This document shows positions 18,200 to 53,797 of a DNA stretch of 54,688 bases, piece by piece. Position 1 is the first letter of the stretch. Each line of letters starts with the position of its first letter. This DNA is from a virus (lineage: Duplodnaviria; Heunggongvirae; Uroviricota; Caudoviricetes). The notes under the pieces were generated by a model that ran no database searches, was not told the origin of the DNA, and worked only from the letters and a program-made list of their open reading frames with translations. The stretch covers positions 1-54,688 of IMG/VR virus record IMGVR_UViG_2541047774_000008. One strand, written 5' to 3'. The translations under genes were made by a program, and so were the position numbers.

Positions 18200-19418
18200 T
18201 GGCGTTATCCTTCTGCTTACCGGCTTTACTGCCATCGGATGGTTTCGTGGTCATGTTCATCGGTGTGAGATAGACATCCCCACCGGGACGCGGATTCATA
18301 TCTTCCAGGTCGCGGCAGTCATTGGGAGAGTAAATTCCCCAGTTGATCCCGGTGGCGTAGGCTTCAAAACGGGACTTCATATCCCCGCGCAGTAACGCCC
18401 CGGCGTTAAATTTGGCGTAATAAACGCCCTGCTTACTTTTTCGTACCAGTCCGGTGTTGATCCGCTGTTCGATGCGGGTCAGATACGGCACCAGTGAATA
18501 GTTGATAAATCCCAGCCCCAGCTCTTCGATATTGTTGAAGGTGGCGCGATCGGTGTTCTGCACCATGTGCAACGGCACCCGGAACAGACGACAGATTTCT
18601 TCAAGCTGAAACTTGCGGGTTTCCAGGAACTGGCTGTCCTCGGCGTTCAGCGCCATCGACTTCCAGTCCAGCCCCATCTCAAGGATCATCGGGCGGTGAG
18701 CATTGCCAAGCCCGGTGTGACGCTCCTCAAAATCTTTCTTCAGGCGCTCATAAGCCTGATCCGACAGCGTCTGTTCTGTACGCAACACACCGGACGTCAC
18801 CGCACCATTGCTGAACAGTCTGGCCCCGTGCTCTTCGGTCGCTGCTGCCAGCGATATTGCCTCGCGGGCATAGGCGATGGGATTCAGTCCCACCAGACCG
18901 TCCAGCGTCAGCGTGCGCACATGCCAGATATCTTCCTGGCTCAGTACATCCGTGGAACCGTCCGGGAATGTGACCTGATAGACCGGCTCCCAACGACTGT
19001 TAAGCTTCGGTACCACACAACCGGGATCGACGGGCAGCAGTTCAGCCACTTCGCCAAATGCTTTCACTTTGTAGGCGTAAAAGTTTCCCCTCAGGCACAG
19101 ACAGGTGACCACCAGCTCCCAGAACTCCTGCGGCGTCATATAGCCATTGGGATGCGTGGAGATCAGCTTATGCAGACGTTCGCCGGTGGCTCTCTGTTTC
19201 AGGCTGCCGTTCAGGTGATACAGATTGCAGGGCAACATCCCGACCGACTCTGCCAGCACTCTGACGCAGGAAAAAACCGCCGTCAGTCGCATGGCCCGCT
19301 GACTGCTGATCTGCTTTCCGGTATAGGTGTCGTAAGACAACCCGATGGCATCCGCCAGCTCTGCTGGCGTGGTCACCGGCGCGTCACTTTTTCGTTGAAA
19401 TAATCCCGAAAAGAACAC
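18177..19418 (-). CDS. portal protein, HK97 family
   Basis: 413 aa, portal-like, directly upstream of protease and capsid genes. Confidence 0.9.
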   Translation of the reverse strand: MFFSGLFQRKSDAPVTTPAELADAIGLSYDTYTGKQISSQRAMRLTAVFSCVRVLAESVGMLPCNLYHLNGSLKQRATGERLHKLISTHPNGYMTPQEFWELVVTCLCLRGNFYAYKVKAFGEVAELLPVDPGCVVPKLNSRWEPVYQVTFPDGSTDVLSQEDIWHVRTLTLDGLVGLNPIAYAREAISLAAATEEHGARLFSNGAVTSGVLRTEQTLSDQAYERLKKDFEERHTGLGNAHRPMILEMGLDWKSMALNAEDSQFLETRKFQLEEICRLFRVPLHMVQNTDRATFNNIEELGLGFINYSLVPYLTRIEQRINTGLVRKSKQGVYYAKFNAGALLRGDMKSRFEAYATGINWGIYSPNDCRDLEDMNPRPGGDVYLTPMNMTTKPSDGSKAGKQKDNANADETTS

Positions 19419-19600
19419 TATTTACCTCCGCCGACAGACGGCTGTGTACGGTCGAGATATCGCGCCACCAGCCACGACCAGAACAGGCACAGCACCCCGG
19501 CAACAACAAAACCCGCCGGGGGATAAATCAGCCAGGCACCATACGCCAGCAAAAGCGCACCCAGCACGCCCACCAGTGGCGCGAGAATTATCAGAAACAT
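19418..19600 (-). CDS. small membrane protein (60 aa, two TM helices)
   Basis: ATG at 19600 with GAGG RBS; strongly hydrophobic; sits between terL 3' end and portal. Confidence 0.45.
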
Positions 19601-19611
19601 AATGACCTCGG

Positions 19612-20358
19612 TTAAAGCGAACGGATGCCCACGCTGACCAGATGTTCAGACAGATCCAGCTCCGGTTCACCACCATTGACCAGCATCCGGCTCATTGCTG
19701 TAAACATCGCAACAGGGCCGTCGATTTTGGCTTCCAGCGTGGATTTATTCGGGAAGATATTGTCGTTTTTGTCCGGTTTTACCGTAACGTTAGACATCAT
19801 CCAGTTCATGACCGGATGATTGCTGTGATGGAAACGCCCGGCATAGACCAGTGATTCCGTTTCCTTCATGGCCTCTGACAGATTGCGAACCGTCTGCGGA
19901 ACCTCCACCAGCGGTATCCCTTCTTCAGCCAGTGCCAGGCTGAACTGCATCGCGCTCCACGGGTCAAATCCCAGTTCCCTGAGGTTTTCACCACCAATCC
20001 ATTCCAGTAAGTCACTTTTTATCTGAGCATGATCGATAACATCACCATCCGTCAGAATCAGCTTATCCATCTCCGCCCACTTCCGGTAAAGTTCTGCCTG
20101 CTGCCGCGAGCATCGTTCCAGCCGTCCTTCCGGAAGCCAGAATTTAAAATCGGCATGAACATGCCCGTTATCCGTTCGCCAGAGTTTTGCCGCCGCACAG
20201 ATATCAATCTTATGAGCAAGGTCAACGCCGACCCACATGGGATACGTTTTCAGCTCATGTCGTGGGGCAATGTATTCGCACTTCTCCCACTTAATCATGT
20301 CCATCCAGGCAGACTCTGCTGTTACCCACACATTCATGTGTTTGGTAAGAATATTTCA
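19612..20358 (-). pseudogene. 3' fragment of prophage terminase large subunit gene (nuclease domain), separated from its 5' part by the island
   Basis: 241-aa ORF (19612-20337) plus in-frame upstream codons to the stop at 20356-20358 (NILTKHMNVWVTAESAW...) align with the C-terminal half of the island TerL. Confidence 0.8.
20342..20348. repeat. left copy of 7-bp direct repeat TTGGTAA at the island boundary (putative att core)
   Basis: Identical heptamer at 35313-35319; in both copies the embedded ACC codon is in frame in its terL fragment. Confidence 0.6.
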
Positions 20359-20423
20359 AGTTTTTTAAAATCACCTGTATATCAATCATTTAACATGAAA
20401 AAACAGTCTTTATAAATCATCGA

Positions 20424-28988: not shown

Positions 28989-30404
28989 TTACAGTGGGCG
29001 CACGTCATCACCGTCAATAGCAATAACGCCATCACCTTCCAGCTTGTACAGCCAGCGCCGGAAGTGTTTCATCTCATACCCCAGCTTTTTCATATCATCG
29101 CGCAATAACGGGATAGTGCATTTATCGCTGCGCTGTGTGCGTGACCGGATACAGCCCCATAGTGCGGCGTGATTCTCCGTCTTGTTTCCGGCCTCCTCGA
29201 TGCGCTCCAGTTCAACGGGTGGGCGCGGTTTATCCACAACCACCAGCGACGTGATTAACTCCTTGTCAGCGTCGGTAAAAAGCTCCACCACACGTAAATC
29301 GTATGCAGCCTCTTTCAGTTCCTCCGCGTCCTTCATTTTGGTGCAGGAGATAACCAGGGCTTCACTGTCCGCACCTTCACGGCGAATACGGTATTCAGCA
29401 TCCAGAGATGCACGAAATGCACTGGAACCACGCGCTCCCTTTGTTTCATCCTTGCCGGAATGGTGAACCACCAGCACCGTGGCCCCTGTGCGTCGTTTCA
29501 GTTCGTCACATCCACGGATAAACGCTCCCATATCCCGCGCGTCATTTTCATCATTACCGCCAAAACAACGCGCCAGCGTATCCAGAATAATCATGCGTAC
29601 CGGTTTACCCGTTTCCCGTTCAACCTGGCGGGAAGCGATGACCATTTCATCGACATCAAGCGGGACTGCCGGAAAAATCGGGCGGTTTACCAGGTACAGA
29701 TTTTCCACCCGTTCATCATTAACGATTTCCCATGCCTTGATACGGCGGGGGACACCAATGCCACCTTCACCGACAACATACATCACCGAACCATGCGCCA
29801 CCCTGCGGCCTCCCCAGTGGCGACCCGTGGCAACATGACACGCCCAGGAACACGCGAGGAACGATTTATAGGAACCGCTCGCGCCGTATGTGCTACACAA
29901 TGAATTAGCCGGAATCACGCCCTTAACGACATAATCAAGCTGTGTGTCGTACCCTGCAGATCCAATGCTCATTGGTAGCGTGGTTTTTCGCTGGCTGTAT
30001 TGCTCGTCAGTAAGAATTTCCCCGCGCTCTGCCTGTTCGCGGATCCGTTGCAGGTAGTCGTGCCAGTTCTCCAGCTTCTGGCTGTGCATTCCCTCAGGGT
30101 AATAATTCGCATCCCGTACACCTGCCGCCGCCAGCTTTTGCCCGATGGCGTTAATATTTGACGGCTTGATGTGGCCTGCCTTGTACAGCCGGACACAATA
30201 GCGACCATCGTCGATAATTTTCAGGTCTGCCAGTTCGTCAAGCTGGCTGTCTCCCAGCCATACAGGCGGCACGTTGTCGCCAGCAAGTCGCCCGTCCTGC
30301 TCCTGCCACTGTTTCGCGTGCGCCCAGGCATCACTACCCGCAAAAATAATGACTTCGGTCATTTTGTCGTGCGGCTGTTTTTTTAAGTTCGGTGCCAGTT
30401 TCAT
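28989..30404 (-). CDS. replication protein, primase/helicase-like RecA-fold ATPase
   Basis: 471 aa; Walker A-like YGASGSYKS and Walker B-like MIILDTLARCFGGNDEND; ATG at 30404 overlaps the upstream stop. Confidence 0.75.
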   Translation of the reverse strand: MKLAPNLKKQPHDKMTEVIIFAGSDAWAHAKQWQEQDGRLAGDNVPPVWLGDSQLDELADLKIIDDGRYCVRLYKAGHIKPSNINAIGQKLAAAGVRDANYYPEGMHSQKLENWHDYLQRIREQAERGEILTDEQYSQRKTTLPMSIGSAGYDTQLDYVVKGVIPANSLCSTYGASGSYKSFLACSWACHVATGRHWGGRRVAHGSVMYVVGEGGIGVPRRIKAWEIVNDERVENLYLVNRPIFPAVPLDVDEMVIASRQVERETGKPVRMIILDTLARCFGGNDENDARDMGAFIRGCDELKRRTGATVLVVHHSGKDETKGARGSSAFRASLDAEYRIRREGADSEALVISCTKMKDAEELKEAAYDLRVVELFTDADKELITSLVVVDKPRPPVELERIEEAGNKTENHAALWGCIRSRTQRSDKCTIPLLRDDMKKLGYEMKHFRRWLYKLEGDGVIAIDGDDVRPL

Positions 30405-30700
30405 TTTTTACCCCTGAATGCGTTAATCATGTTTTTCATTTTCTGAATGTTTGCCCGTGCCTTTGCGTTGCTGGTGGGCTGTTTGTGTGGTGTGGCCTGT
30501 TCCAGAGAAAAATCACGCCGGAACTGATAAACAGGCATCACGCAGTCGTAGCTGTACCCATCACGGCGGTAAGTAACGCACCGTCCGGCAATACTTTTAA
30601 TCGTTACCGTGCCGCCGTAGTTATCCCGGAAAATATCGCCGGGGCGGATTTCAGGCCGAGCGGGGCCACTGGCAGTAAAGCCAGAATTTTTCTGTTTCAT
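30401..30700 (-). CDS. hypothetical protein (99 aa)
   Basis: ORF translationally coupled to rep. Confidence 0.45.
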   Translation of the reverse strand: MKQKNSGFTASGPARPEIRPGDIFRDNYGGTVTIKSIAGRCVTYRRDGYSYDCVMPVYQFRRDFSLEQATPHKQPTSNAKARANIQKMKNMINAFRGKK

Positions 30701-30730
30701 GGTTTTATTTTCCTGTCAGTGATTCCGGTT

Positions 30731-30904
30731 TTATTCCGGCGCGAATACAGGCTTCAGAAAAAAAGCCAGAGAACCAACAAACTCATCATTTCTAAGACGG
30801 CATTGTGATTTTACTTTCCCTTTATCCAGGAATATTAAAACGCGCCCTGTGTAATCTGATGGCACATTCAGCACGACAGGTAAGTGCGCTTCATGATTAT
30901 GCAT
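30731..30904 (-). CDS. hypothetical small protein (57 aa)
   Basis: Not in the ORF track (under 60 aa); ATG at 30904 preceded by GAGGGGG; translates MHNHEAHLPVVLNVPSDYTGRVLIFLDKGKVKSQCR... Confidence 0.3.
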   Translation of the reverse strand: MHNHEAHLPVVLNVPSDYTGRVLIFLDKGKVKSQCRLRNDEFVGSLAFFLKPVFAPE

Positions 30905-31365
30905 GGTTCACCCCCTCAGGGAATTTTCTTCTGTAACGCGCCTCTGCCACATATTCAGCATAGTCCGACGCAATAACGAGAATATCGCTGCCTGTTCCTG
31001 AATGCTCAGTGGTTCCAATTAAAAAACATGCGGCCTTTATCAGGTCATTAACAACCAGCAACGCATCACCCGCATCATCCGATACGCCATCAAATTCCTG
31101 TTTCAGGGCATTAAAACGATCATCACGCATAACCCCCCCCCCCATTTTCACAATCAGCAATCAGGATAGCCCTGGCCTCATTCAGTGCCATATCAGCACT
31201 AAATTGCATAACAGCCAGTGAGTGAGGAACGAAAGCCCCGGCATATTCTGTTTCGCTGGTAGCGTGCTTATGCGCCCTGTCTGCGATAACAGAAATATCA
31301 ATCAGCGCATCAATCAGTGTTTTGATGGCTTCGGCGGCTGCGTCCGGACGGGTGTCATTGCACAT
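30897..31365 (-). CDS. hypothetical gene split by a frameshift in an 11-nt homopolymer (ORFs 31123-31365 and 30897-31160)
   Basis: Upstream ORF ends ...ENGGGGYA and downstream begins MGGGVMRDD across C11 (plus strand) at 31133-31143; a 10-nt run would fuse them into about 165 aa. Confidence 0.5.
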
Positions 31366-31723
31366 GGCGCACCCCCTGACGAATACGGGCGGCGAATACC
31401 ATCACGCAGCCAGCCGGGGATTGCTGGCGTGCTTCCTGTTCGCTGGTGGCCTCAATGGTAATCACGCGCGGTTGTGCCGTGCTCAGGGCGATAAAACGCC
31501 AGATAAAATTGTTCTCGCATTTCTGAATAAACAGCGTGTTTTCTTCGCGCCCTTTCCATGTTGCCGAGATATAGCCCATGTCATTGAGCATCTCGCAGGC
31601 ATCCACCAGCGTATCAGCGGCTACGTGTACAGTGTTTTTACCGTCAGCCATGCAATCACGGTGCACCGCCAGGAAGGTGTATATAAATTTAGGGTGAGTT
31701 TGGGTATGCTGTGTTCCAGCCAT
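31355..31723 (-). CDS. hypothetical protein (122 aa)
   Basis: Codon-like 3' portion of the long 31355-32596 ORF; ATG at 31723 with GGAG RBS (MAGTQHTQTHPKFIY...). Confidence 0.5.
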   Translation of the reverse strand: MAGTQHTQTHPKFIYTFLAVHRDCMADGKNTVHVAADTLVDACEMLNDMGYISATWKGREENTLFIQKCENNFIWRFIALSTAQPRVITIEATSEQEARQQSPAGCVMVFAARIRQGVRHVQ

Positions 31724-31798
31724 AATCGTTACTCCAGTTAACGGTTTGGTTAGACGCCCTGCATGTGTTGCGAGCACTGCGGGGCGTCGCTCTTTTAG

Positions 31799-31844
31799 GT
31801 GTATTTCACCTTTGCTTTTTAATTTACTCACTGGTGAAATACAC
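31799..31844. promoter_or_regulatory. perfect 12-bp inverted repeat GTGTATTTCACC-N22-GGTGAAATACAC in the island divergent intergenic region (putative operator)
   Basis: Lies between minus-strand gene 31355-31723 and the plus-strand regulator at 31911. Confidence 0.5.
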
Positions 31845-31910
31845 TTCAAGCCTTTTTTTATCATTTTTTTTGCGTATACTGACATACACCAATTTTTAGG
31901 AGATCCAGAA

Positions 31911-32090
31911 ATGGCAACTGGTGCAAAGAACGCAAAATCACAAATGACAACTGTCAGAATCCCACATGAAGTAATGGATGATATTGAGCAACTTAAAGAA
32001 CCTGGCGAAAGTACCGCTGGTTTTTTAGTTACTGCCGCAAAAGGCGAGATCAAACGCCGCCAGCGTCGCAAGGCCAAAGAGCAGGAATAA
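31911..32090 (+). CDS. small DNA-binding regulator, possibly ribbon-helix-helix (59 aa)
   Basis: ATG at 31911 with AGGAG RBS; MATGAKNAKSQMTTVRIPHEVMDDIEQL... and basic C-terminus; divergent from the replication block. Confidence 0.5.
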   Translation: MATGAKNAKSQMTTVRIPHEVMDDIEQLKEPGESTAGFLVTAAKGEIKRRQRRKAKEQE

Positions 32091-32144
32091 CCATCACCAG
32101 CGCCGTGGTGTGAGGAATCACGGCGGCAACCATAGGAGTAAAAG

Positions 32145-32297
32145 ATGCCAAAACTTAAAAATTGTGCACTCTGTGCGATTGTTCTAATTGTCGCCGCCTT
32201 TATCTTAAAATCATGCTTCGAGAAAAAGAATCTTTGCGGAAGCAATGAAGGCGATATATTACGGCGTGCTTGCGATATAGAGTTGAAAAAAAGTTGA
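32145..32297 (+). CDS. small Cys-rich hydrophobic peptide (50 aa)
   Basis: Not in the ORF track; ATG at 32145 with AGGAG 5 nt upstream; MPKLKNCALCAIVLIVAAFILKSCFEKK...; hairpin with U-run downstream. Confidence 0.35.
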   Translation: MPKLKNCALCAIVLIVAAFILKSCFEKKNLCGSNEGDILRRACDIELKKS

Positions 32298-32740
32298 TCA
32301 TAACCTAACCGCGACAATGCCGTAGTTTCTGTAATTACAGAACAGCTCAGGATTTGCCCACCAGCCGTAAATGTGGCATTGTTGGTTATGCTCATGCGTT
32401 GGGGATAACGTGTAGCTTGTGTCGAGGGGCCACCGTAGCGGGTGGCCTTTGTTTTGCCTGTTATCCTGCAACTATGGTCATTTCGACCACGGTTGATATA
32501 ATCCCCCCGCACAGATTCATTTTTTGCGCAGTAGGTTAATTGTTCGCAAGGGCGCTCCGGTAACGGGGCGCTTTTTGTTTTTACCCACCAGCACAATAAA
32601 AATCTTCATTTTCCATTTTTGTAAAATTTCATGCTTTCCGGACGACTGGTCATATGTCATTTTTTAGCAGAAGATTTTGCCTTGCTGGTGGGTAGCTTCC
32701 CGGTCAACACGATGTACCGTATAATCAACACCGCGTGTGG

Positions 32741-33319
32741 TTACTGAATACGCTCACCAAAGTAAAACTCAGGCTGGTATTCACGTATCAGCCTTTTTTC
32801 TTCTTCCTCCAGCTCACGCTTTTTGCGCTTACATGCCTGTAGCTCCCTCCCCTTCTCACTAGCACTTATCTGGTATTGCTCTTTGCGGCGAGAAAAATCC
32901 TGTAATGCGCCCCACGGGATACCATAAGCCCCCGTTTTTCTGATACCCGGTATCACATTTCTGAATACCCAGTTACTGAAACGATGGGCGAACGTGCCAG
33001 GCGTCGTTGCTTTGCGGCTGCGGGCTATTAGTTTGTAGAAACCTGACTCAGAGATAATGCTCATATTCTGATTTCCTCCGGGGGTGTAAGTTAAATTTAC
33101 TCCCTTTTCATCATCATCAAGCATCTGCAACGCCGTACGCGAATTGGTCAGCTCCAGCGCAGCGCAAACATCCTTTGCAACAAACCACGGATCGCCGTTC
33201 AGATACACCACGCGAACGTTCACACCATCAAAGCGCAGAACGACCAGATCACGAATATCACAGAATTTTTTCACATGACGTGCGTCACCCTTGCCCGTCA
33301 CGGCAATATTTTTATTCAT
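32741..33319 (-). CDS. Bro-N domain protein (antirepressor-like)
   Basis: 192 aa; N-terminal LRFDGVNVRVVYLNGDPWFVAKDVCAALEL matches the Bro-N pattern; coiled-coil C-terminus. Confidence 0.7.
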   Translation of the reverse strand: MNKNIAVTGKGDARHVKKFCDIRDLVVLRFDGVNVRVVYLNGDPWFVAKDVCAALELTNSRTALQMLDDDEKGVNLTYTPGGNQNMSIISESGFYKLIARSRKATTPGTFAHRFSNWVFRNVIPGIRKTGAYGIPWGALQDFSRRKEQYQISASEKGRELQACKRKKRELEEEEKRLIREYQPEFYFGERIQ

Positions 33320-33376
33320 CGCTTTCTACCTCACATACAAAAAACCCCGCATTGCGTGGTGCGGGGTTGTCGGTAA

Positions 33377-33655
33377 TTACTTATTGGCGTTTTTGTATGG
33401 GCTGTTTACTTCCTTTACTCCTGGCGGATGCATAACCCACCAGAGCACATCAGAGAGCAACCAGGAAACAGACACTTTCCCTAAATGAGCACGAGCAGGA
33501 AATGCTCCCTCCTGTTCAAGTACCCAACGTCTGCTTCTTGAAAGCCCGGTACGATTGGCACACTCATGTTCGCGTATACGGCGATCATACGGTTCGCCAT
33601 GTTCTTTCAGAATCTGAATGCGTTCTTCGGGTGTAGGATAAATAAATTTTTGCAT
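33377..33655 (-). CDS. AlpA-like small DNA-binding protein
   Basis: ORF 33377-33685; start placed at the internal Met (MQKFIYPTPE...), coordinate by arithmetic; HTH-like segment; next to a second AlpA-like gene and int. Confidence 0.5.
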   Translation of the reverse strand: MQKFIYPTPEERIQILKEHGEPYDRRIREHECANRTGLSRSRRWVLEQEGAFPARAHLGKVSVSWLLSDVLWWVMHPPGVKEVNSPYKNANK

Positions 33656-33718
33656 AAAAATATCACCTATAAAAAAACCCGCCAAAAGACGGGTTGATTA
33701 TATCTCATTTAATTTAGT

Positions 33719-33952
33719 TCAGGGTTTCCATTCACCCTTTACCCATTCCAGCACCTCAGATAAGCGCCAGACTTTTGTTTGTGGGCCAATACATATTTTT
33801 CGTGGAAATTTTCCTTCCTTTTCAAGTAACGATCTGTGTCTCCTGCCAAGAGCGGTTAACCATGCACATTCATCTTCCTTAATCATCCTGTCGATTGTTT
33901 CATCATTTTCAAGTTCTTCACGCGTAACTATTTGAATCATTACTGTCACCAC
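33719..33952 (-). CDS. alpA: AlpA-family transcriptional regulator
   Basis: 77 aa with AlpA-like HTH (AWLTALGRRHRSLLEKEGKFP); immediately downstream of int. Confidence 0.65.
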   Translation of the reverse strand: MVTVMIQIVTREELENDETIDRMIKEDECAWLTALGRRHRSLLEKEGKFPRKICIGPQTKVWRLSEVLEWVKGEWKP

Positions 33953-35141
33953 TAATTTGCTTATTCAGATAGTCGTACCACCAGTTCATAGCTTCTTTTT
34001 TTCTGTCCATATACTGGCTTCTGTTATAAACCCCGGCAACACCGCCTAATGTGTGCCCAAGCAACTGTTCAACCACATTATGTTCAAAACCATGATCACT
34101 TAGTTTTGTGGCAAACACTCTTCGCATATCATGCGCCGTCCATTTCTCCGAGTGTTTCATCCTTTTCCATGTCTTACCGATAGTTACGCTTGCCGTACAC
34201 TGACGCATATCAAACCCAATCACATTTTCTTTGTTACCTGTTATTTTTTTTAACGTAACTAACCAGTTAAACATGCCATCAGGAATCGGTCTGATTATTT
34301 CCCTGCCATTTTTGCTATGATCAGCGGGAACGCGCCATAATTTCTTATCAAAATCCCACTCTACCCAGGACGACAGTAATACTTCTGACAGTCGACAACC
34401 AAAAACTACCAGGAAACGTAAAATAATTCGGTTTTCATATGATAATTCGTGATTGTCATAATCAGTATTAATACTTCGCCATAAATCTCTGATTTCATCA
34501 TCTGTTAAAACCCTGCTTCTTCGCGCAGACTTTTTTCCCACATCACAGACCTCAAGATCATCAATTTCATGACTAATCGCGTATTTTCTTACCCTACAAA
34601 ATTTAAGCGCCTGTTTTGATATACGCAACAAAGCTCCGGCCTGTACAGGTGCTACTTTTTTTATTTTGTCAAAACACTTGATCCACATAGATATAGAGCA
34701 ATCACTAAGTGGTACATGACCAATCACCGGATAAATATGTTTACCAAAGCACTGCCTGATATGTTCTGCTCCCCTACGCTTATCCATTGCATAATTATCA
34801 AGCCAGTATTCAAGTGCCTCACGAACGGTAACAGGTTGCAAGGTGGCTTCCCGTTCAATTTTTATCTGAATCCGTGGATCTCTGCCCTCCGCAAGCCAGG
34901 TTCGACACTGATCGCGCATCTCTCTCGCTGATTTGAGACTCAGATCAGGATATTTTCCAAGTGTCAGCCAGATGGGCGCGGTTCCCCTTCCCGCCAGTCT
35001 GTAAAAGAAAACAAAACTAACACATCCGTATTTACTGACCCGTACCGAAAGCCCGTTACCATCAGCGATGGTTTCCTGCCTCTCACTCCTGCGCCCAAGC
35101 AGGGAACGAAGTTTTTTATCGCTCAGTTTGTTTAGCGCCAT
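33918..35141 (-). CDS. int: tyrosine integrase, P4-like (island)
   Basis: ORF 33918-35177; first ATG at 35141 (MALNKLSDKKLRSLLG...); C-terminal catalytic region with R, H-x-x-R and Y; sits at the island right end. Confidence 0.85.
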   Translation of the reverse strand: MALNKLSDKKLRSLLGRRSERQETIADGNGLSVRVSKYGCVSFVFFYRLAGRGTAPIWLTLGKYPDLSLKSAREMRDQCRTWLAEGRDPRIQIKIEREATLQPVTVREALEYWLDNYAMDKRRGAEHIRQCFGKHIYPVIGHVPLSDCSISMWIKCFDKIKKVAPVQAGALLRISKQALKFCRVRKYAISHEIDDLEVCDVGKKSARRSRVLTDDEIRDLWRSINTDYDNHELSYENRIILRFLVVFGCRLSEVLLSSWVEWDFDKKLWRVPADHSKNGREIIRPIPDGMFNWLVTLKKITGNKENVIGFDMRQCTASVTIGKTWKRMKHSEKWTAHDMRRVFATKLSDHGFEHNVVEQLLGHTLGGVAGVYNRSQYMDRKKEAMNWWYDYLNKQISGDSNDSNSYA

Positions 35142-35161
35142 GTGATTTATAACCCGTTTTT

Positions 35162-35182
35162 GCAATACACAGTGCAATACAC
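35162..35182. repeat. 21-bp subterminal direct repeat GCAATACACAGTGCAATACAC (putative integrase arm-type site), right end
   Basis: Direct repeat of 20424-20444 with one mismatch; just upstream of the int start. Confidence 0.6.
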
Positions 35183-35312
35183 AAATGATGAAAACAGCCA
35201 GAACCTTCCAGAAAAAACAAAAACGACGAACAAGAAAAAATCTTTTTCTTTCATTTGGTTACTAAAAAAATCAGGACAGGTCGCACTGTTGTTACGGCGT
35301 GATGTTACTTTC

Positions 35313-35319
35313 TTGGTAA
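35313..35319. repeat. right copy of 7-bp direct repeat TTGGTAA at the island boundary (putative att core)
   Basis: Matches 20342-20348; lies within the FFTKK codons of the terL 5' fragment. Confidence 0.6.
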
Positions 35320-36340
35320 AAAAATTCACCCGCGCAGAGACCTGTTCTTTCGCTTTTTTCGCCAGGCGACGCAGATCATCCCAGCGTTTACAGATGCCCA
35401 GGCCGGGATTCGCTTTCTGCCAGACCGTTTCATCAAACGGATCATCTCCCTCATCGAGGGTGTAAATAATCGCAAAGTAGGAGTCGTCTTTTACAGCGCC
35501 CTCCACATCGCTGTTATAGCCACGCAATACCTTGATGGCGTAATCACGCTGCTCGTAACAAATCCCTTCCTTGTTAAACCCTGCCGTGGTGATACCAAAT
35601 AACAGGGACTGCAGGCGGGCACCGGTTGCCGTTTCCAGAACGTCCCACACGTCGCGGGTTTTATGTGCATGCAGCTCATCAATAATGGCGCAGTGGATGT
35701 TCAGACCATCCAGGTTGTTTGCATCCGAGGAAAGCGGTTCAAATTTTGATGCGCTCTGCTCCTGGTAAATCGCCAGCTTGTTGAAATCAAACAACCGCCC
35801 GAGTGTCGACCGGGCTTTTCTGACCATATTTTTGGCGTCTTCAAACACAATTCTGGCCTGGTCACGCGTGGTGGCGGCTGAATACACCTCAGCACCGCCT
35901 TCACCATCTGCCCCCGTCATATACAGGCCGATACCCGATGACAGAGTTGATTTTGCGTTTTTACGGGCGACTTCGTTGTACGCCGTCCGGAACCGGCGCA
36001 CCATCACCGGACGTCCGCTGCCATCGCTGCGCATGACAACTTCCCCGGTCTCTTCATTCACCAGCGGAATGACAAAACCAAAAATATTAATGAGGATAAA
36101 TACATGCCAGTCCATCAGTTCAATGGGCTGGCCTGCCAGCGCCCCTTTTACATGAGGCACAAATTTGTAGAAATTCAGGATGTGCTGCGCACGGGGTTCA
36201 CTGAAATAAATCCCCCGCTCTTCGCCGTACTTCAGATCATCAAGAAAACGCTGGCAGGCCAAGCGGACAAATTCGCCAGCAACAATTTCTCCTGCGACAA
36301 CACGTTCGGCGTAGCGGATCCCGTCAGCCACTTTTGCCAT
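35313..36340 (-). pseudogene. 5' fragment of prophage terminase large subunit gene (ATPase domain), separated from its 3' part by the island
   Basis: ORF 35147-36340; Walker A-like EVARKNAKST and Walker B-like AIIDELHAH; similarity to the island TerL stops at ...ARVNFFTKK, after which the frame runs into island DNA. Confidence 0.8.
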
Positions 36341-36822
36341 CAGTCTCTCGCTTTTAAAAGCTCCGCCAGCGGATCAACATCATCCGGTCCGGCGATATTT
36401 ACTTTAGCCCGGCTTGCCGGTGACATACCAAACTCTGCAAGCATTGCCCGGATCCGCTTCCAGGCATCCGCTTTCATTGCCGCCGCGGGGTGCGCCTTAA
36501 TCAGTACATCACCGCTCTGCGTTTCCGTGCGGTAGGTATACCCCTCAACATCGAGTGTTTCGCAGTGATGCCGATATTCGGTGTAGGCTTCCACCAGCAA
36601 CTCGAGCGCACGCGCATCAAGCTGAGAAATGATCCCTTCCGCATTCAGCTCTTCCGCCATTCGCCTGAACCAGTACTTCCCCTGAGCCCCTAAATGCTGC
36701 GGAATTTTAGGAAGACCTTTTTCATCCTTTTTAGCGGTTTTTTTGTGGTCTTTAACGGGGCGCTTTGAGGGGTTGCCTCGAATCAAATGCAGGCGTGGCG
36801 GGGTTTTCGGAGGTCCTGACAT
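36340..36822 (-). CDS. terminase small subunit, P27 family (prophage)
   Basis: 160 aa starting MSGPPKTP; directly upstream of the terL 5' fragment. Confidence 0.75.
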   Translation of the reverse strand: MSGPPKTPPRLHLIRGNPSKRPVKDHKKTAKKDEKGLPKIPQHLGAQGKYWFRRMAEELNAEGIISQLDARALELLVEAYTEYRHHCETLDVEGYTYRTETQSGDVLIKAHPAAAMKADAWKRIRAMLAEFGMSPASRAKVNIAGPDDVDPLAELLKARD

Positions 36823-37773: not shown

Positions 37774-38259
37774 ATGCCAGAACTCGTTGATCCAACAGAC
37801 TCATTAATTAGTTTTCAATACGCCTTTTCTAATGGTCTGATTAAGCCTTCACCATGCATAGTTCACCCAAATATGAAGGTGCTTTTGGATGATGCAGAGG
37901 GTACACCACGGTTTACTTATGCATTCTTTGAAGGAGAAAATGTTAAAGGTGTTGCTATATATGTCCCTGCAGAGTTTGTTGAAGGTAAACCATGCTTTGG
38001 CGTTGGCTATGCAGTAGCCGATGAATATAAAGCGCAAGGCATCGGTACTCAACTTCTCATCGCCAGCATTGAAGAAATGCAATACGGATTTAGAAATTCC
38101 TTCAATGAATTCTATGTAGAGGCTATTGTCGGGGTTGGTAATCAAGCCTCCAACAAATTAGCTGCAAAAGTTTTATCTGATACTCCTGAGCCAGGGACAG
38201 ATTCTTACTCAGGAAAACCTATCAATCAGTACATGAAACTTTTCAAAACCACAAAATAA
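37774..38259 (+). CDS. GNAT-family N-acetyltransferase (moron)
   Basis: 161 aa, plus strand against the late-gene flow, AT-rich; acetyl-CoA motif-like AQGIGTQLL. Confidence 0.65.
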   Translation: MPELVDPTDSLISFQYAFSNGLIKPSPCIVHPNMKVLLDDAEGTPRFTYAFFEGENVKGVAIYVPAEFVEGKPCFGVGYAVADEYKAQGIGTQLLIASIEEMQYGFRNSFNEFYVEAIVGVGNQASNKLAAKVLSDTPEPGTDSYSGKPINQYMKLFKTTK

Positions 38260-40317: not shown

Positions 40318-40392
<75 letters not shown>

Positions 40393-40395
40393 ATA

Positions 40396-40471
<76 letters not shown>

Positions 40472-40473
40472 AC

Positions 40474-40550
40474 TGGACCGCCACCGGGGACTCGAACCTC
40501 GCACACTCAACTTAAAGGGTTGACGCTCTTTCCTGATGAGCTAGTGGCGG
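40474..40550 (-). tRNA. atypical tRNA-like gene (anticodon loop CCUUUAA, possibly Lys-UUU-like)
   Basis: 77 nt; acceptor CCGCCAC/GTGGCGG, D-stem GCTC/GAGC, T-loop TTCGAGT, CCA encoded; C at position 33 and one A-C mismatch in the T-stem. Confidence 0.5.
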
Positions 40551-40551
40551 C

Positions 40552-40627
40552 TGGTGGCCCTTGCTGGATTTGAACCAGCGACCTGGCGATTATGAGTCGC
40601 TCGCTCTCACCACTGAGCTAAAGGGCC
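40552..40627 (-). tRNA. tRNA with CAU anticodon (Ile2/Met type)
   Basis: 76-nt cloverleaf: acceptor GGCCCTT/AAGGGCC, anticodon loop CUCAUAA, T-loop TTCAAAT, CCA encoded. Confidence 0.75.
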
Positions 40628-40821: not shown

Positions 40822-41517
40822 TCAATCTACTTTTGCAACACTTTGCTTTGAAAATGCCGCCTTTTGTTTTGAACGTGTTCTCATTACAAACAATAAAGCC
40901 TCACTATCAAGTCGGTGAAAAATGTGTTTCATTGCAACCCAGTGACGAGTAAATGTTTTGGACCAGTTTTTAGTTGTCACTCCCGCCAGTAATGCCAGCT
41001 CCTGGTATTCATAACCTTCCCCACCAAAAAGTTCTGCTTTTAATGCCTGCGCCGCCAGCCAGATTAATTTTTTCAGGCGTTCCTGCGTTTTCCCTGCAAT
41101 TTTTCTGGTACCGGATTGAGTATTAAATTCATTCCACGCCCACTGTGTTATCGCGATCTGATATTCCCAACAAATACTCCCGCTGTAACACCACAACAAC
41201 CAGGCTTTATGATGTTCTTCAAGAGACAGAACTGCCCGTCGCCATGATGATGTCGAAAACTCAACCTGACTTACCAGAGCAATTGATGAGCCTTTCGCCA
41301 GTGATTGTTTTCCCGGTATCGGTGGACTATCCCGCGTTATCATTCTTCCAGTCACTTCATCGCGGTACCGGATTTTTTTACGCCTGTAACGCCCTGTATC
41401 AAACATGGCATTCTCCTGCCAGGCTTCAAGCTGACCTTTTGTTGCCCCACTCAAATCAGCGGTAGCGATAATGAGCTGCTCACGCACAAACTGTAAATAC
41501 TGGTTATTCATGCGCAC
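40822..41517 (-). CDS. putative late-gene antiterminator (Q-like)
   Basis: 231 aa in the Q position between rusA and the tRNA/lysis block; call rests on position plus general family resemblance. Confidence 0.5.
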   Translation of the reverse strand: MRMNNQYLQFVREQLIIATADLSGATKGQLEAWQENAMFDTGRYRRKKIRYRDEVTGRMITRDSPPIPGKQSLAKGSSIALVSQVEFSTSSWRRAVLSLEEHHKAWLLWCYSGSICWEYQIAITQWAWNEFNTQSGTRKIAGKTQERLKKLIWLAAQALKAELFGGEGYEYQELALLAGVTTKNWSKTFTRHWVAMKHIFHRLDSEALLFVMRTRSKQKAAFSKQSVAKVD

Positions 41518-44041: not shown

Positions 44042-44197
44042 TTACTCCTCAGGTTCGTAAGCTGTGAAGACAGCGACCTCCGTCTGGCCAGTTCGGATTC
44101 GTACCTCGCAGAGGTCTTTCCTCGTTACCAGTGCCGTCACAATGACGGTTAAACAGATGACGATCAGGGCGATTAACATCGCCTTTTGCTGCTTCAT
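44042..44197 (-). CDS. hokD: Hok/Gef-family type I toxin
   Basis: ORF 44042-44254; ATG at 44197 gives 51 aa MKQQKAMLIALIVICLTVIVTALVTRKDLCEVRIRTGQTEVAVFTAYEPEE, preceded by AGGAG. Confidence 0.8.
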   Translation of the reverse strand: MKQQKAMLIALIVICLTVIVTALVTRKDLCEVRIRTGQTEVAVFTAYEPEE

Positions 44198-44434
44198 AGC
44201 CTGCTTCTCCTTGCCTTTCGGCACGTAAGAGGCTAACCTAGATTTGCCGTTCATAGATTGAGCCTCAGATTAATGTTAAGCGTCTTGCCGGACGCGTAAT
44301 GTTAACTGGGGCTTTTCTCTATCTGCCTTTCAGTGTTCATGCCTGAGACAGATAGCCTCAAGCACCCGCAGCCATTCTACTTAACTCACGTCACCTCGCC
44401 AATATGAAATCAATCAGAAAGGTGATCCATAAAA

Positions 44435-45121
44435 TCACTCCTTCTCTTCTTTTCCGTAGTGGAGTTGGCCAATTTTGATAAGAGGGCGTCCCTGAGATTT
44501 GCGGTGTAGATTGGTATCGCGCAGAGAATACACACAGCCACAATATTCCTGCTGATAGAATTTTTCGCGCTTGCTGATTTCAATCATACGGGACGAGCCG
44601 CCCTGCTTGCGCCAGTTATAATCCCAGTACACCATACCCGGATAATGCGCAACAGCTCGCCGCCCACACTCGTTAACCTGCTGCATATTTTTCCAGCGTG
44701 AAATGCCCAGTGAACTGCTGATCACACTGAAACCATTTTCAGCAGCGTACAACGCTGTCCGCTCAAAACGCATGTCAAAACACATGGTACAACGGATCCC
44801 CCTCTCAGGCTCCCATTCCATTCCTTTGGCACGTTCAAACCAGTTGTCGGTGTCGTAATCAGCATCGATAAACGGCACGCCGTGTTGTTCAGCAAAGCGA
44901 ATATTTTCATCCTTACGAATTAAATACTCTTTCTGAGGATGAATGTTCGGGTTGTAGAAAAAGATGGTGTAGTCGATTCCCGAGGCCTGAAGCGCCTCCA
45001 TCACTTCACCGGAACATGGAGCACAGCAAGAGTGCAGTAGTAGTTTGTTTGCCCCGTTTGGGAGCTCCAATTTAGGCCGTTTGAAATCAGCAATAGTCAT
45101 AAATATTTTTATTGGGGTCAT
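44435..45121 (-). CDS. QueH-like (DUF208) protein, putative epoxyqueuosine reductase
   Basis: 228 aa with [12 protein letters not shown] and CGC Cys motifs typical of DUF208/QueH. Confidence 0.55.
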
Positions 45122-45274
45122 GAAAATAGCACAGAGTGTAGCATCAGAGCAGGGCTATCGGGAATATATGTCTAAATCTGGTAATATCTGGTTTTGACGC
45201 AAAGCGGACAACCACGCTGGCTCTACCCTGCGCCATGAAAATGTCAATTCACATCTGAACTAATGCTCTTTAAT

Positions 45275-45700
45275 CTAGTAACGTCTAAAATACCTAACAT
45301 TTCCTTGATAAAATGCCAGTACACGCTGCATAGCTTCGCTCTTCCGGCACTCGCGACAGATTATATTCAGGCGCCTGTCGTAGCGGCGTATTTCGCCGTC
45401 TGGTAACGACCAGATAAGGTCCGGATCAACCACTGCAGGTTTCTTCACCTTTGCCCTTGAGAGTTTTTTGCGGGCATTTTGCCAGTCCTTACGCGCCTGT
45501 TCAGACGGGAATAACCCGTAGCCAGAATTGTATACATCGCCACTGGCAACCAGCTCTCTGGCGAGAACACTCATCAGATATCTTGTCGCACCTGTTTTCG
45601 CTTCCAGTTGTCGTAACGTCTCGCGCCCGCTCAGGCGCACGAGTTCAACAACCTGCCTCTTAATTTTTTCCCGCTCTTCTTGTGTAAATACTTTTGCCAC
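45275..45700 (-). CDS. hypothetical protein (141 aa), downstream of the replication initiator
   Basis: ORF in the position of a helicase loader or accessory replication gene; no recognisable motif. Confidence 0.45.
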   Translation of the reverse strand: MAKVFTQEEREKIKRQVVELVRLSGRETLRQLEAKTGATRYLMSVLARELVASGDVYNSGYGLFPSEQARKDWQNARKKLSRAKVKKPAVVDPDLIWSLPDGEIRRYDRRLNIICRECRKSEAMQRVLAFYQGNVRYFRRY

Positions 45701-45740
45701 AAGCCCTCCTGAAAATTACCTCATGACCAGAAATTAACAC

Positions 45741-46817
45741 TTACCCCCTGAAGCCCGGCGGAATTTCGTTATCCGGTTCAGAAATATGATTCACACAACG
45801 CTGGTTGTTCGTGCCGCTTACCGGGAGCAACCAAGGGTTCTCAAAATTCCGGTCCGGTCCAAAAAACGTCGTCGCTCGCTGAACAAATTCCGTTCCCGTT
45901 TTCCCGGTAGCCGCCAGGTATCTTGCGTAACGCCTCACACCATCCAGCATGGCCTCTGGTGGCACCCCCTCGCGTAATCTGGCCTTCCAGGCACTGAAAG
46001 CGGATTTCTTCGGGTTTGCCCCAGCACGCAACGGGTATTCCCGCCAGACCTGTTCGAACACATCCGGATAATCTACTCGTCCCACAGGCTGCCCGGTGTT
46101 TTCCGGGACTACCCGATCGGCTTCCCGCTGAATGGCGGAATCGGCTTCAGGCTGCTGCAGTTGGTGTGATTGCTCCGGCCTTGCGGTCATCACCTGCTGC
46201 ACAGCGCCCGAATCGGCTTTCAGCGCATACGCTGAATCGGCTTCCGGTGTCGTGCCTGCTGGCTGACCAGGATTGACGGTCTGAACATCCCCTGCCTGGT
46301 TCGTGGCGTTTTTTACGCCATGGACCATAGTGTTTTGATCTTCTTGATCTGTATCTTTATCTGTATCTTTATCTGTCGTGACTCGTCGTGACATGTGCGT
46401 GACATTTCGTGACGCGCCGTGACAATCGCCATTTTGTTCCTGCTTTCTTTCCCTCTCTCGCTGCGCCCTCTTGCGCTCTGCAGGAGATTTTGCGGTTTGC
46501 GAAATATTGCCGTTGTCCTCTTTAAGCACCTGGCGTTTTTCCCATCCAGTGATTAAATCACCATCAAGTACCCGCCCCTGCATCGTCTGCAAAATTGAAT
46601 CAATTACCTCTTCTGTCACGTCGAGCGCACTTGCCAAATCTTCTGTCGTGACATCAATGTGACCTCGCGTGACATTTCGTGACGCGCTCACCAGGAGGTG
46701 GATATACACTGCCATCACTGTTGCAATTGGCTGCCCTGACACCCTGGCAATTGTTCGCCACTTAGGGTCATTTGGCATGTCATGCCATAATCTGAGCCAG
46801 GCGTTAGCCATACTCAC
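45741..46817 (-). CDS. replication initiation protein (replisome-organiser-like) containing the ori iterons
   Basis: 358 aa with conserved N-terminal and C-terminal domains around a low-complexity DKDTDKDTD linker encoded by the iterons. Confidence 0.7.
   Translation of the reverse strand: MSMANAWLRLWHDMPNDPKWRTIARVSGQPIATVMAVYIHLLVSASRNVTRGHIDVTTEDLASALDVTEEVIDSILQTMQGRVLDGDLITGWEKRQVLKEDNGNISQTAKSPAERKRAQRERERKQEQNGDCHGASRNVTHMSRRVTTDKDTDKDTDQEDQNTMVHGVKNATNQAGDVQTVNPGQPAGTTPEADSAYALKADSGAVQQVMTARPEQSHQLQQPEADSAIQREADRVVPENTGQPVGRVDYPDVFEQVWREYPLRAGANPKKSAFSAWKARLREGVPPEAMLDGVRRYARYLAATGKTGTEFVQRATTFFGPDRNFENPWLLPVSGTNNQRCVNHISEPDNEIPPGFRG
46377..46683. repeat. origin-like iteron arrays (CGTGAC x9) inside the replication initiator gene
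   Basis: Five CGTGAC copies at 10-11 bp spacing (46377-46423) and four CGTGAC/TGTGAC copies at 46646-46683. Confidence 0.7.
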
Positions 46818-46882: not shown

Positions 46883-47308
46883 TCAATGTACTGCCACAGC
46901 ATTTCCTGCCGGGCCACCACAGTTCATCTGATTGAAACCGGCGATTGCCACTGCGACAAAATCATCAGCGTCTCTCACCAATCGCTCCCGCGTCTCCACC
47001 AGCTCCCGAAAATAAGCTGAACTGTGGCTGCGCATTCTGGCCACCAGCAAAGGTGGCATTGCCTTTTCGATCGCTGGTAACAACGCCTGAATTTTTTCAA
47101 CTGCATCAGGGGTGTCTTTCTCTACCCAGCGGAAAATTTTCTGGGTATTGCGAGCCAAGGCTTCCGGATGACTGTCGTCATACAGTTCCGGGAACGTCAT
47201 TCCCAGCTCGAAATACGCTTTGGTAATTTTCGCAGCCGGTACTTTTTCGCCGTCCGGATGCGCCCAGGCATTCATCGCCATGCGGATGTGTTCATGCTTG
47301 ATTTTCAT
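46883..47308 (-). CDS. YdaT-like protein (cII position)
   Basis: 141 aa starting MKIKHEHI; follows the Cro-like gene as in Rac ydaS-ydaT. Confidence 0.55.
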   Translation of the reverse strand: MKIKHEHIRMAMNAWAHPDGEKVPAAKITKAYFELGMTFPELYDDSHPEALARNTQKIFRWVEKDTPDAVEKIQALLPAIEKAMPPLLVARMRSHSSAYFRELVETRERLVRDADDFVAVAIAGFNQMNCGGPAGNAVAVH

Positions 47309-47559
47309 GAATCAACTCCCATCAGCTTTTTCGTAGTAGTTTTATTCCTGCCAATAGTTAAAATTGCATCGGCAGAAAATAATCCGTTTGATGCAAGAGC
47401 GATTTTTTCAGCGTAATTTGTTTCGCCGGTATATTCTGTGCGAGGCAATTTTCCGTTATCCATCCATTTATAGATTGCTCTTTGGCTGACACCACAAACG
47501 TCGGCCACAACAGCAACGCGAACAGTTTTGATTACATCTTCAAGTGTTTTCTGGTTCAT
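47305..47559 (-). CDS. Cro/YdaS-like HTH regulator
   Basis: ORF 47305-47631; ATG at 47559 with GAGG RBS; HTH segment VCGVSQRAIYKWMDNGKLP; divergent from the repressor. Confidence 0.65.
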   Translation of the reverse strand: MNQKTLEDVIKTVRVAVVADVCGVSQRAIYKWMDNGKLPRTEYTGETNYAEKIALASNGLFSADAILTIGRNKTTTKKLMGVDS

Positions 47560-53707: not shown

Positions 53708-53797
53708 TGGCGGAGAGAGGGGGATTTGAACCCCCGGTGGAGTTGCCCCCACTCCGGTTTTCGAGACCGGTCCGTTCAGCCGCTCCGGCATCTCTCC
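53708..53797 (-). tRNA. serU: tRNA-Ser (anticodon CGA)
   Basis: 90-nt cloverleaf with long variable arm; acceptor GGAGAGA/TCTCTCC, anticodon loop CUCGAAA, CCA encoded; 3' end faces the integrase. Confidence 0.9.

Follow-up and report, generated by a model that had tools for sequence, protein, structure and literature searches.

What would a temperate phage gain from carrying an enzyme for a step of tRNA modification that its host can already perform? The question is raised by a lambdoid E. coli prophage of 54,688 nucleotides (IMG/VR record IMGVR_UViG_2541047774_000008; this whole stretch is called the window below), which encodes a homolog of the B12-independent epoxyqueuosine reductase QueH. 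QueG and QueH share the last step of queuosine synthesis, the conversion of oQ-tRNA to Q-tRNA, and the full pathway has been described for E. coli (PMC5372724). A passage of PMC4646009 that cites Frey et al. (1988) describes the QueG step as cobalamin-dependent, and QueH is the cobamide-independent alternative epoxyqueuosine reductase (PMC6461909). Native queG is found in 5426 of 5426 complete E. coli genomes. E. coli itself makes no cobalamin de novo and has to import it.

Family membership, start codon and predicted fold

An earlier note, written from the sequence alone, had proposed that a 228-aa product with the Cys motif of DUF208/QueH is encoded in the prophage. The minus-strand ORF (44435..45121) matches the Pfam profile PF02677 (QueH) with an E-value of 1.1e-65 and 221.5 bits (cutoff 23.5) over profile positions 1-174 of 175. 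As this match is full-length and far above the cutoff, the ORF is not a chance one, and the profile search did not place its product in an unrelated Cys-rich family. The sequence of the crystallised T. maritima QueH (PDB 7lc5) matches residues 27-203 (E 7.8e-22), and the QueH Cys motif is present at residues 27-38. In an evenly spaced sample of 40 carrier rows, PGAP names the gene 'epoxyqueuosine reductase QueH' every time. The proposal of an epoxyqueuosine reductase on a prophage is thus borne out by the profile, the PGAP name, the structure matches in sequence and predicted fold, and the Cys ligands.

A search of NCBIfam with the product gave no match, and PHROGs assigns it to phrog_3217, which is labelled 'unknown function'. 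The PHROG 3217 profile begins at M41 of the queH product, and many phage annotations seemingly call a similarly shortened QueH ORF that lacks the CCAPC motif. Such shortened calls may have contributed to the label.

Counted from the first ATG, the ORF has the 228 aa given in the earlier note. The real product is likely shorter, since sequence comparison indicates that translation probably starts at M8 (45100), which gives 221 aa. This start is favoured because it is the one called by PGAP, because the seven codons before M8 vary among queH alleles (MTPIKIF vs MNLINTF) in an otherwise nearly invariant gene, and because strain ST70 has ATT where the in-frame upstream ATG (45121) stands in a multiple alignment of the upstream regions. 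By inspection, no Shine-Dalgarno motif precedes either M8 or the upstream ATG.

The cysteines were compared in an alignment of the queH product with T. maritima QueH and with 112 representatives that sample the diversity of the family, at identities down to about 37%. All seven family-conserved cysteines are kept in the phage product (C32, C33, C36, C111, C114, C194 and C196), forming a CCxPC close to the N-terminus, a CxxC in the middle and a CGC at the C-terminal end. Their columns hold Cys in 76-109 of the 113 aligned sequences, the remainder being mostly gaps from partial sequences. We take these cysteines to be the ligands of a [4Fe-4S] cluster and an adjacent iron, as in the T. maritima structure. 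C36 (about 45014-45016 in the window) aligns with Asp13 of T. maritima QueH. In this column, Cys is found in 91 of about 99 aligned representatives (about 92%) and Asp in two, so that Cys is the norm and the crystallised T. maritima enzyme is the atypical family member. The metal-site model derived from the Asp form may hence not describe a typical QueH. PDB entries for the C9S and D13N mutants of T. maritima QueH indicate by their titles that both positions have been functionally probed.

An AF2 model of the product, built from 26 sequences, reached only moderate confidence (pLDDT 76, pTM 0.78), with residues 91-100 poorly predicted. In a Foldseek comparison with the PDB, the best five matches are all T. 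maritima QueH, the C9S and D13N mutants among them (target-normalised TM 0.79-0.82, rmsd about 3 A), and the next fold is LarE with a TM of 0.36. According to the model, the predicted product shares the QueH fold.

A variable slot in the early operon

The integration site of the prophage is a tRNA-Ser gene (CGA; 53708-53797) adjoining mtfA. In strain N51, the tRNA-Ser/mtfA-side junction lies just upstream of a tRNA-Asn gene and a yersiniabactin island with its own integrase and ybtS. The gene map of the prophage was taken from PGAP annotations of near-identical genomes (Table 1). From the cro-like gene onward, all early-right genes lie on the minus strand, in the order cro-like, CII-like/YdaT, replication initiator, DUF977/Ren-like, queH, hok/sok, lipoprotein-like ORF, DUF968, RusA, Q, tRNAs and lysis genes. 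queH thus falls within the nin-like part of the delayed-early operon; it shares the strand of the operon and has the replication genes on one side and Q on the other.

Table 1. Coordinates of queH and of neighbouring features in the window.
Feature	Position	Strand	Basis or remark
cro-like gene	47305-47559	minus	PGAP
Replication initiator	45741-46817	minus	PGAP
DUF977 / LygF / Ren-like exclusion protein gene	45275..45700	minus	PGAP DUF977; PHROG 142 Ren-like, E 2e-46
Non-coding stretch upstream that accompanies queH in even the most divergent contexts	45101..45216	minus	HannyBb breakpoints, multiple alignment
Candidate extended -10 element TGcTACACT	45135..45143	minus	hypothetical; within the conserved block CTCTGATGCTACAC (45136-45149)
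queH CDS	44435..45100	minus	221 aa, counted from M8 (probable start); homolog of B12-independent epoxyqueuosine reductase
hok/mok/sok type I toxin-antitoxin	44042..44367	minus	Rfam RF01794 sok, 111.9 bits (44192-44367); PGAP hokD
Q	40822-41511	minus	PGAP
tRNA cluster Gly-TCC, Thr-TGT, Lys-TTT, CAT	40318..40627	minus	ARAGORN, PGAP; downstream of Q

Homology breakpoints around queH were compared among 80 IMG/VR loci and three others (two E. coli prophages and phage HannyBb). They recur at 45709, 45297/45278 and 45216 on the 5' side, the commonest being 45709 at the start of the DUF977 gene, and at 44429, 44367, 44262 and 43954 on the 3' side. The minimal unit, shared with HannyBb between breaks at 45216 and 44429, consists of the queH ORF and about 95-115 nt upstream. 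The DUF977 gene is the constant upstream neighbour on the same strand, whereas the gene 3' of queH differs by context and can be hokD, a KwaB-like gene or DUF1971. In the window, hok/sok lies directly downstream and forms the 3' boundary of the slot, with no part in queH function; the start of hok/mok/sok (44367) coincides with one of the recombination breakpoints. Phages Evi and vB_EcoS-813R8 have the same flanking LygF and hok genes with other cargo between them, namely a regulator and an acetyltransferase in Evi and four small ORFs in vB_EcoS-813R8. In strain 7/2 (locus L093, 2153-3792), a KwaB-like gene, related to the Kiwa anti-phage system, and a hypothetical partner follow directly 3' of queH. 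Hence, the slot after the Ren-like gene is also a hotspot for defence genes.

Genes of the classical moron type come with a promoter and a terminator of their own. The earlier note had placed queH in a moron region, and this holds insofar as the gene is variably present at a fixed position among related phages. As regards expression signals the term is loose, since queH lies on the operon strand and a consensus scan found neither a sigma-70 promoter nor an intrinsic terminator adjoining it. Elsewhere in the prophage, a gene for a GNAT-family acetyltransferase (37774-38259, plus strand) sits between the lysis and the HNH/terminase genes on the opposite strand and comes closer to a classical moron in appearance than queH.

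The sole minus-strand promoter-like site found by the scan (44402-44374) belongs to the hok module, and an Rfam scan detected no preQ1 or cobalamin riboswitch. However, the upstream stretch that travels with queH contains a 14-nt block, CTCTGATGCTACAC, which is conserved in 9 of 9 aligned contexts, including ST70 with its unrelated surroundings; the version in strain 7/2 reads TGCCACACT. The candidate extended -10 element in this block sits about 35 nt upstream of the queH start and was missed by the promoter scan because its -35 is poor. Judged by its sequence, the conserved element could permit expression of queH in the lysogen. From the gene order we infer that queH is read from pR after induction.

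The co-occurrence of queH with phage tRNA genes had been offered in the earlier note as a hint at function, with the caveat that none of the four tRNAs is a queuosine substrate by anticodon. The caveat is correct: according to ARAGORN, none of the four tRNAs in the window has a GUN anticodon. The tRNAs do belong to the same prophage, but they are not next to queH; they lie 3.8 kb or seven genes away, with hok, DUF968, RusA and Q in between. In a survey of 60 queH loci, the tRNAs are CAT with Arg(TCG) and Arg(TCT), CAT with Lys, Thr and Gly, partial sets of these, or none within the flanks. The exception is one locus (L035) with host-like Glu, Ala and Ile(GAT) tRNAs. Asn, Asp, His and Tyr tRNAs were never found at these 60 loci. 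We therefore reject a functional link between queH and the phage tRNAs and regard their co-occurrence as incidental. The CAT tRNA itself (40552-40627) is called Met by ARAGORN and tRNA-Ile by PGAP in the identical N51 prophage. It is probably of the lysidine-modified Ile2 type, and we would liken it to ileZ of Stx phages.

The large-terminase gene terL of the prophage is split by an insert of 14,957 bp (20356-35312). The intact terL of N51 aligns to 35313-36640 and 19312-20355 with a 14-nt overlap. The insert carries its own tyrosine integrase (33918-35177), a capsid gene (25716-26861) and a complete second terL (20868-22529), as well as Bro-N, AAA_25 replication-type, SSB, PerC-like, portal, protease, connector, HNH and small terminase (terS) genes; no tail genes were found in it. 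Judged from its genes, it looks like a capsid-forming satellite (cf-PICI-like) that is integrated inside the terminase gene of its host prophage.

Origin, spread and possible roles

The closest relatives outside E. coli are 79-90% identical to the phage copy and lie in ordinary chromosomal neighbourhoods. In Erwinia, the gene order is purL-queH-glrK-glnB-hmp-glyA; in Providencia, the relative adjoins tmcA, purC and dapE; a relative with 90% identity (P0001) adjoins a LysR regulator gene and acetyltransferase genes; and further chromosomal relatives are found in Photorhabdus and Ewingella. This level of identity to chromosomal, non-phage QueH of other Enterobacterales argues that the phage gene is a captured housekeeping-type gene.

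Within E. coli, queH is present in 995 of 5426 complete genomes (about 18%), and at least 80% of the gene is present in 985 of the 995. The genomes listed for the identical allele include O157:H7, O104:H4, ST131 and APEC strains; one natural lysogen with this allele is O104:H4 FDAARGOS_349. IMG/VR holds at least 188 queH loci. In GenBank phage records, HannyBb is the only credible isolated phage with queH (95% identity, annotated as hypothetical). The other GenBank 'phage' records with QueH, mostly unannotated faecal contigs or very large, doubtfully viral records, were left out of this count.

queH is under strong purifying selection. Five divergent phage and prophage alleles show pairwise dN/dS values of 0.036-0.091 at dS values of up to 0.46, no stop codon interrupts any of 86 full-length alleles (82 plus four more), and differences from the window allele in the 80 IMG/VR loci and three others are mostly synonymous. 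These data bear directly on the idea that queH is a passenger without function, which was picked up accidentally and persists because of its place between useful modules. Such an origin would agree with the full redundancy with queG by gene content and with the unrelated genes that fill the slot in related phages. The low dN/dS, the absence of stops and the near-complete retention of the gene in carrier genomes speak against it so clearly that we consider it most improbable.

The reading that we prefer, with a probability of roughly 70%, is that the gene encodes a functional B12-independent QueH, captured from the chromosome of other Enterobacterales, that makes the last step of queuosine synthesis cobalamin-independent. 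A lambdoid phage would have taken queH from another member of this order and would carry it as cargo of the rightward early operon, flanked by the Ren-like gene and hok/sok. There it would be transcribed from pR after induction, and perhaps also in the lysogen via the candidate extended -10 element. Its product, an iron-sulfur enzyme with no need for cobalamin, would act on the host tRNAs for Asn, Asp, His and Tyr and reduce the oQ in their wobble position (34) to Q. QueG needs cobalamin, and the phage QueH would thus free the step from the B12 supply. Since every E. coli has the B12-dependent QueG for the same step, the phage probably supplies a B12-free backup, and the B12-independent conversion of oQ to Q is the simplest explanation for a second enzyme that is maintained by selection. 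The activity of the enzyme in E. coli, the time of its expression and the idea that selection favours its B12-independence are what we infer here. The size of the benefit is uncertain because we know of no difference between oQ- and Q-tRNA in physiology or in decoding. In one setting, growth was unaffected by the deletion of queG (PMC11841063). This counts against the preferred reading, as does the fact that the only structural model for the QueH metal site is of the atypical Asp form.

The same enzyme might alternatively serve the phage, being silent in the prophage and transcribed from pR after induction or infection, where it would top up queuosine for the NAU/NAC codons of late phage genes. 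The placement of queH would suit this role, as the gene shares the operon strand, with the replication genes before it and Q after it; no separate promoter or terminator is predicted for it, its placement is identical in every context examined, and it occurs in the free isolated phage HannyBb. However, only limited turnover of tRNA takes place in the course of a single lytic cycle, and the conserved extended -10-like block travels with the gene. In addition, queH is kept intact in many prophages, even in the window prophage with its split terL, and this retention fits a benefit to the host. We thus regard a role confined to lytic growth as possible but rather unlikely. A repurposed QueH-like enzyme that acts on another substrate, as in a 7-deazaguanine-type DNA modification, or that has a role in defence or counter-defence would fit a slot that is a cargo hotspot with a KwaB-like gene directly 3' of queH in strain 7/2, and the modification of DNA by 7-deazaguanine chemistry is known from phages (PMC6884629). 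Yet the product shows 80-90% identity to chromosomal QueH of the housekeeping type and keeps all of the conserved cysteines, and no TGT/DpdA, QueC, QueD or QueE partner is found in the annotated parts of the window. None of eight ORFs of the inserted element that were scanned against Pfam matched a TGT/DpdA or preQ0-synthesis family. PADLOC gave no match for queH, DUF977, the lipoprotein-like ORF, a small ORF, DUF968 or the GNAT gene, and the varying downstream neighbours mean that there is no conserved partner gene. A change of substrate or role is accordingly very hard to reconcile with these data, and we give it little weight. The capture of a working, B12-independent QueH remains the reading that we favour.

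Relation to known systems

The enzyme family is known and PGAP already names the gene; it is the carriage by phages that is under-described. In the viruses analysed by Hutinet et al. (2019), no QueA, QueG or QueH homologs were found (PMC6884629), and our full-text literature searches that combined QueH or DUF208 with phage or prophage returned no paper on a prophage-borne QueH. If the preferred reading is true, the prophage gene is a virus-encoded enzyme of the tRNA-queuosine branch, which the 2019 survey reported as absent, and it would add a tRNA-specific queuosine enzyme to the viral auxiliary genes. We propose tentatively, at somewhat below even odds, that temperate coliphages spread a working B12-independent QueH through about one in five E. 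coli strains, with O157:H7, O104:H4, ST131 and APEC backgrounds among them, and thereby make the completion of queuosine cobalamin-independent. With a B12-independent bypass in about 18% of complete genomes, phages would offer a simple example of how the tRNA modification capacity of a host can be changed by a virus. Queuosine tunes NAU/NAC decoding, and phenotypes in stress, biofilm formation and virulence have been connected with it (PMC10570037; PMC9508795). If queH is expressed in lysogens, this would amount to a lysogenic conversion that alters the host epitranscriptome in B12-limited niches. The beneficiary would be the lysogen if the candidate promoter is real and the phage in lytic growth if transcription comes from pR only.

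Compared with other members of the QueH family (DUF208, PF02677, COG1636; T. maritima structures PDB 7LC5, 7LC7 and 9DEU), the phage protein has the same full profile, predicted fold, Cys motifs and length class. It differs from them in its location on a temperate phage genome instead of a chromosomal housekeeping locus, in a host that already has QueG, and it differs from the T. maritima enzyme in having Cys at the position of Asp13, as most of the family does. As cargo, queH resembles the accessory genes (morons or AMGs) of the lambdoid ren-nin region, which likewise occupy a variable slot with breakpoints hugging the gene. Phage 7-deazaguanine gene sets (FolE, QueD, QueE, QueC and DpdA, for example in phage 9g) are also phage-borne genes of the queuosine/archaeosine pathway. 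However, these sets put preQ0-type bases into DNA, whereas the prophage described here has only the tRNA-specific last-step enzyme with no DpdA/TGT partner. The closest functional counterpart is QueG (YjeS), a cobalamin- and [4Fe-4S]-dependent enzyme that acts at the same step and is present in every queH-carrying genome. QueG and QueH are non-orthologous and differ in fold and in the use of the B12 cofactor, and QueG is encoded on the chromosome of every E. coli. The two enzymes form a pair that parallels the B12-dependent and B12-independent pairs of the MetH/MetE type (PMC6461909).
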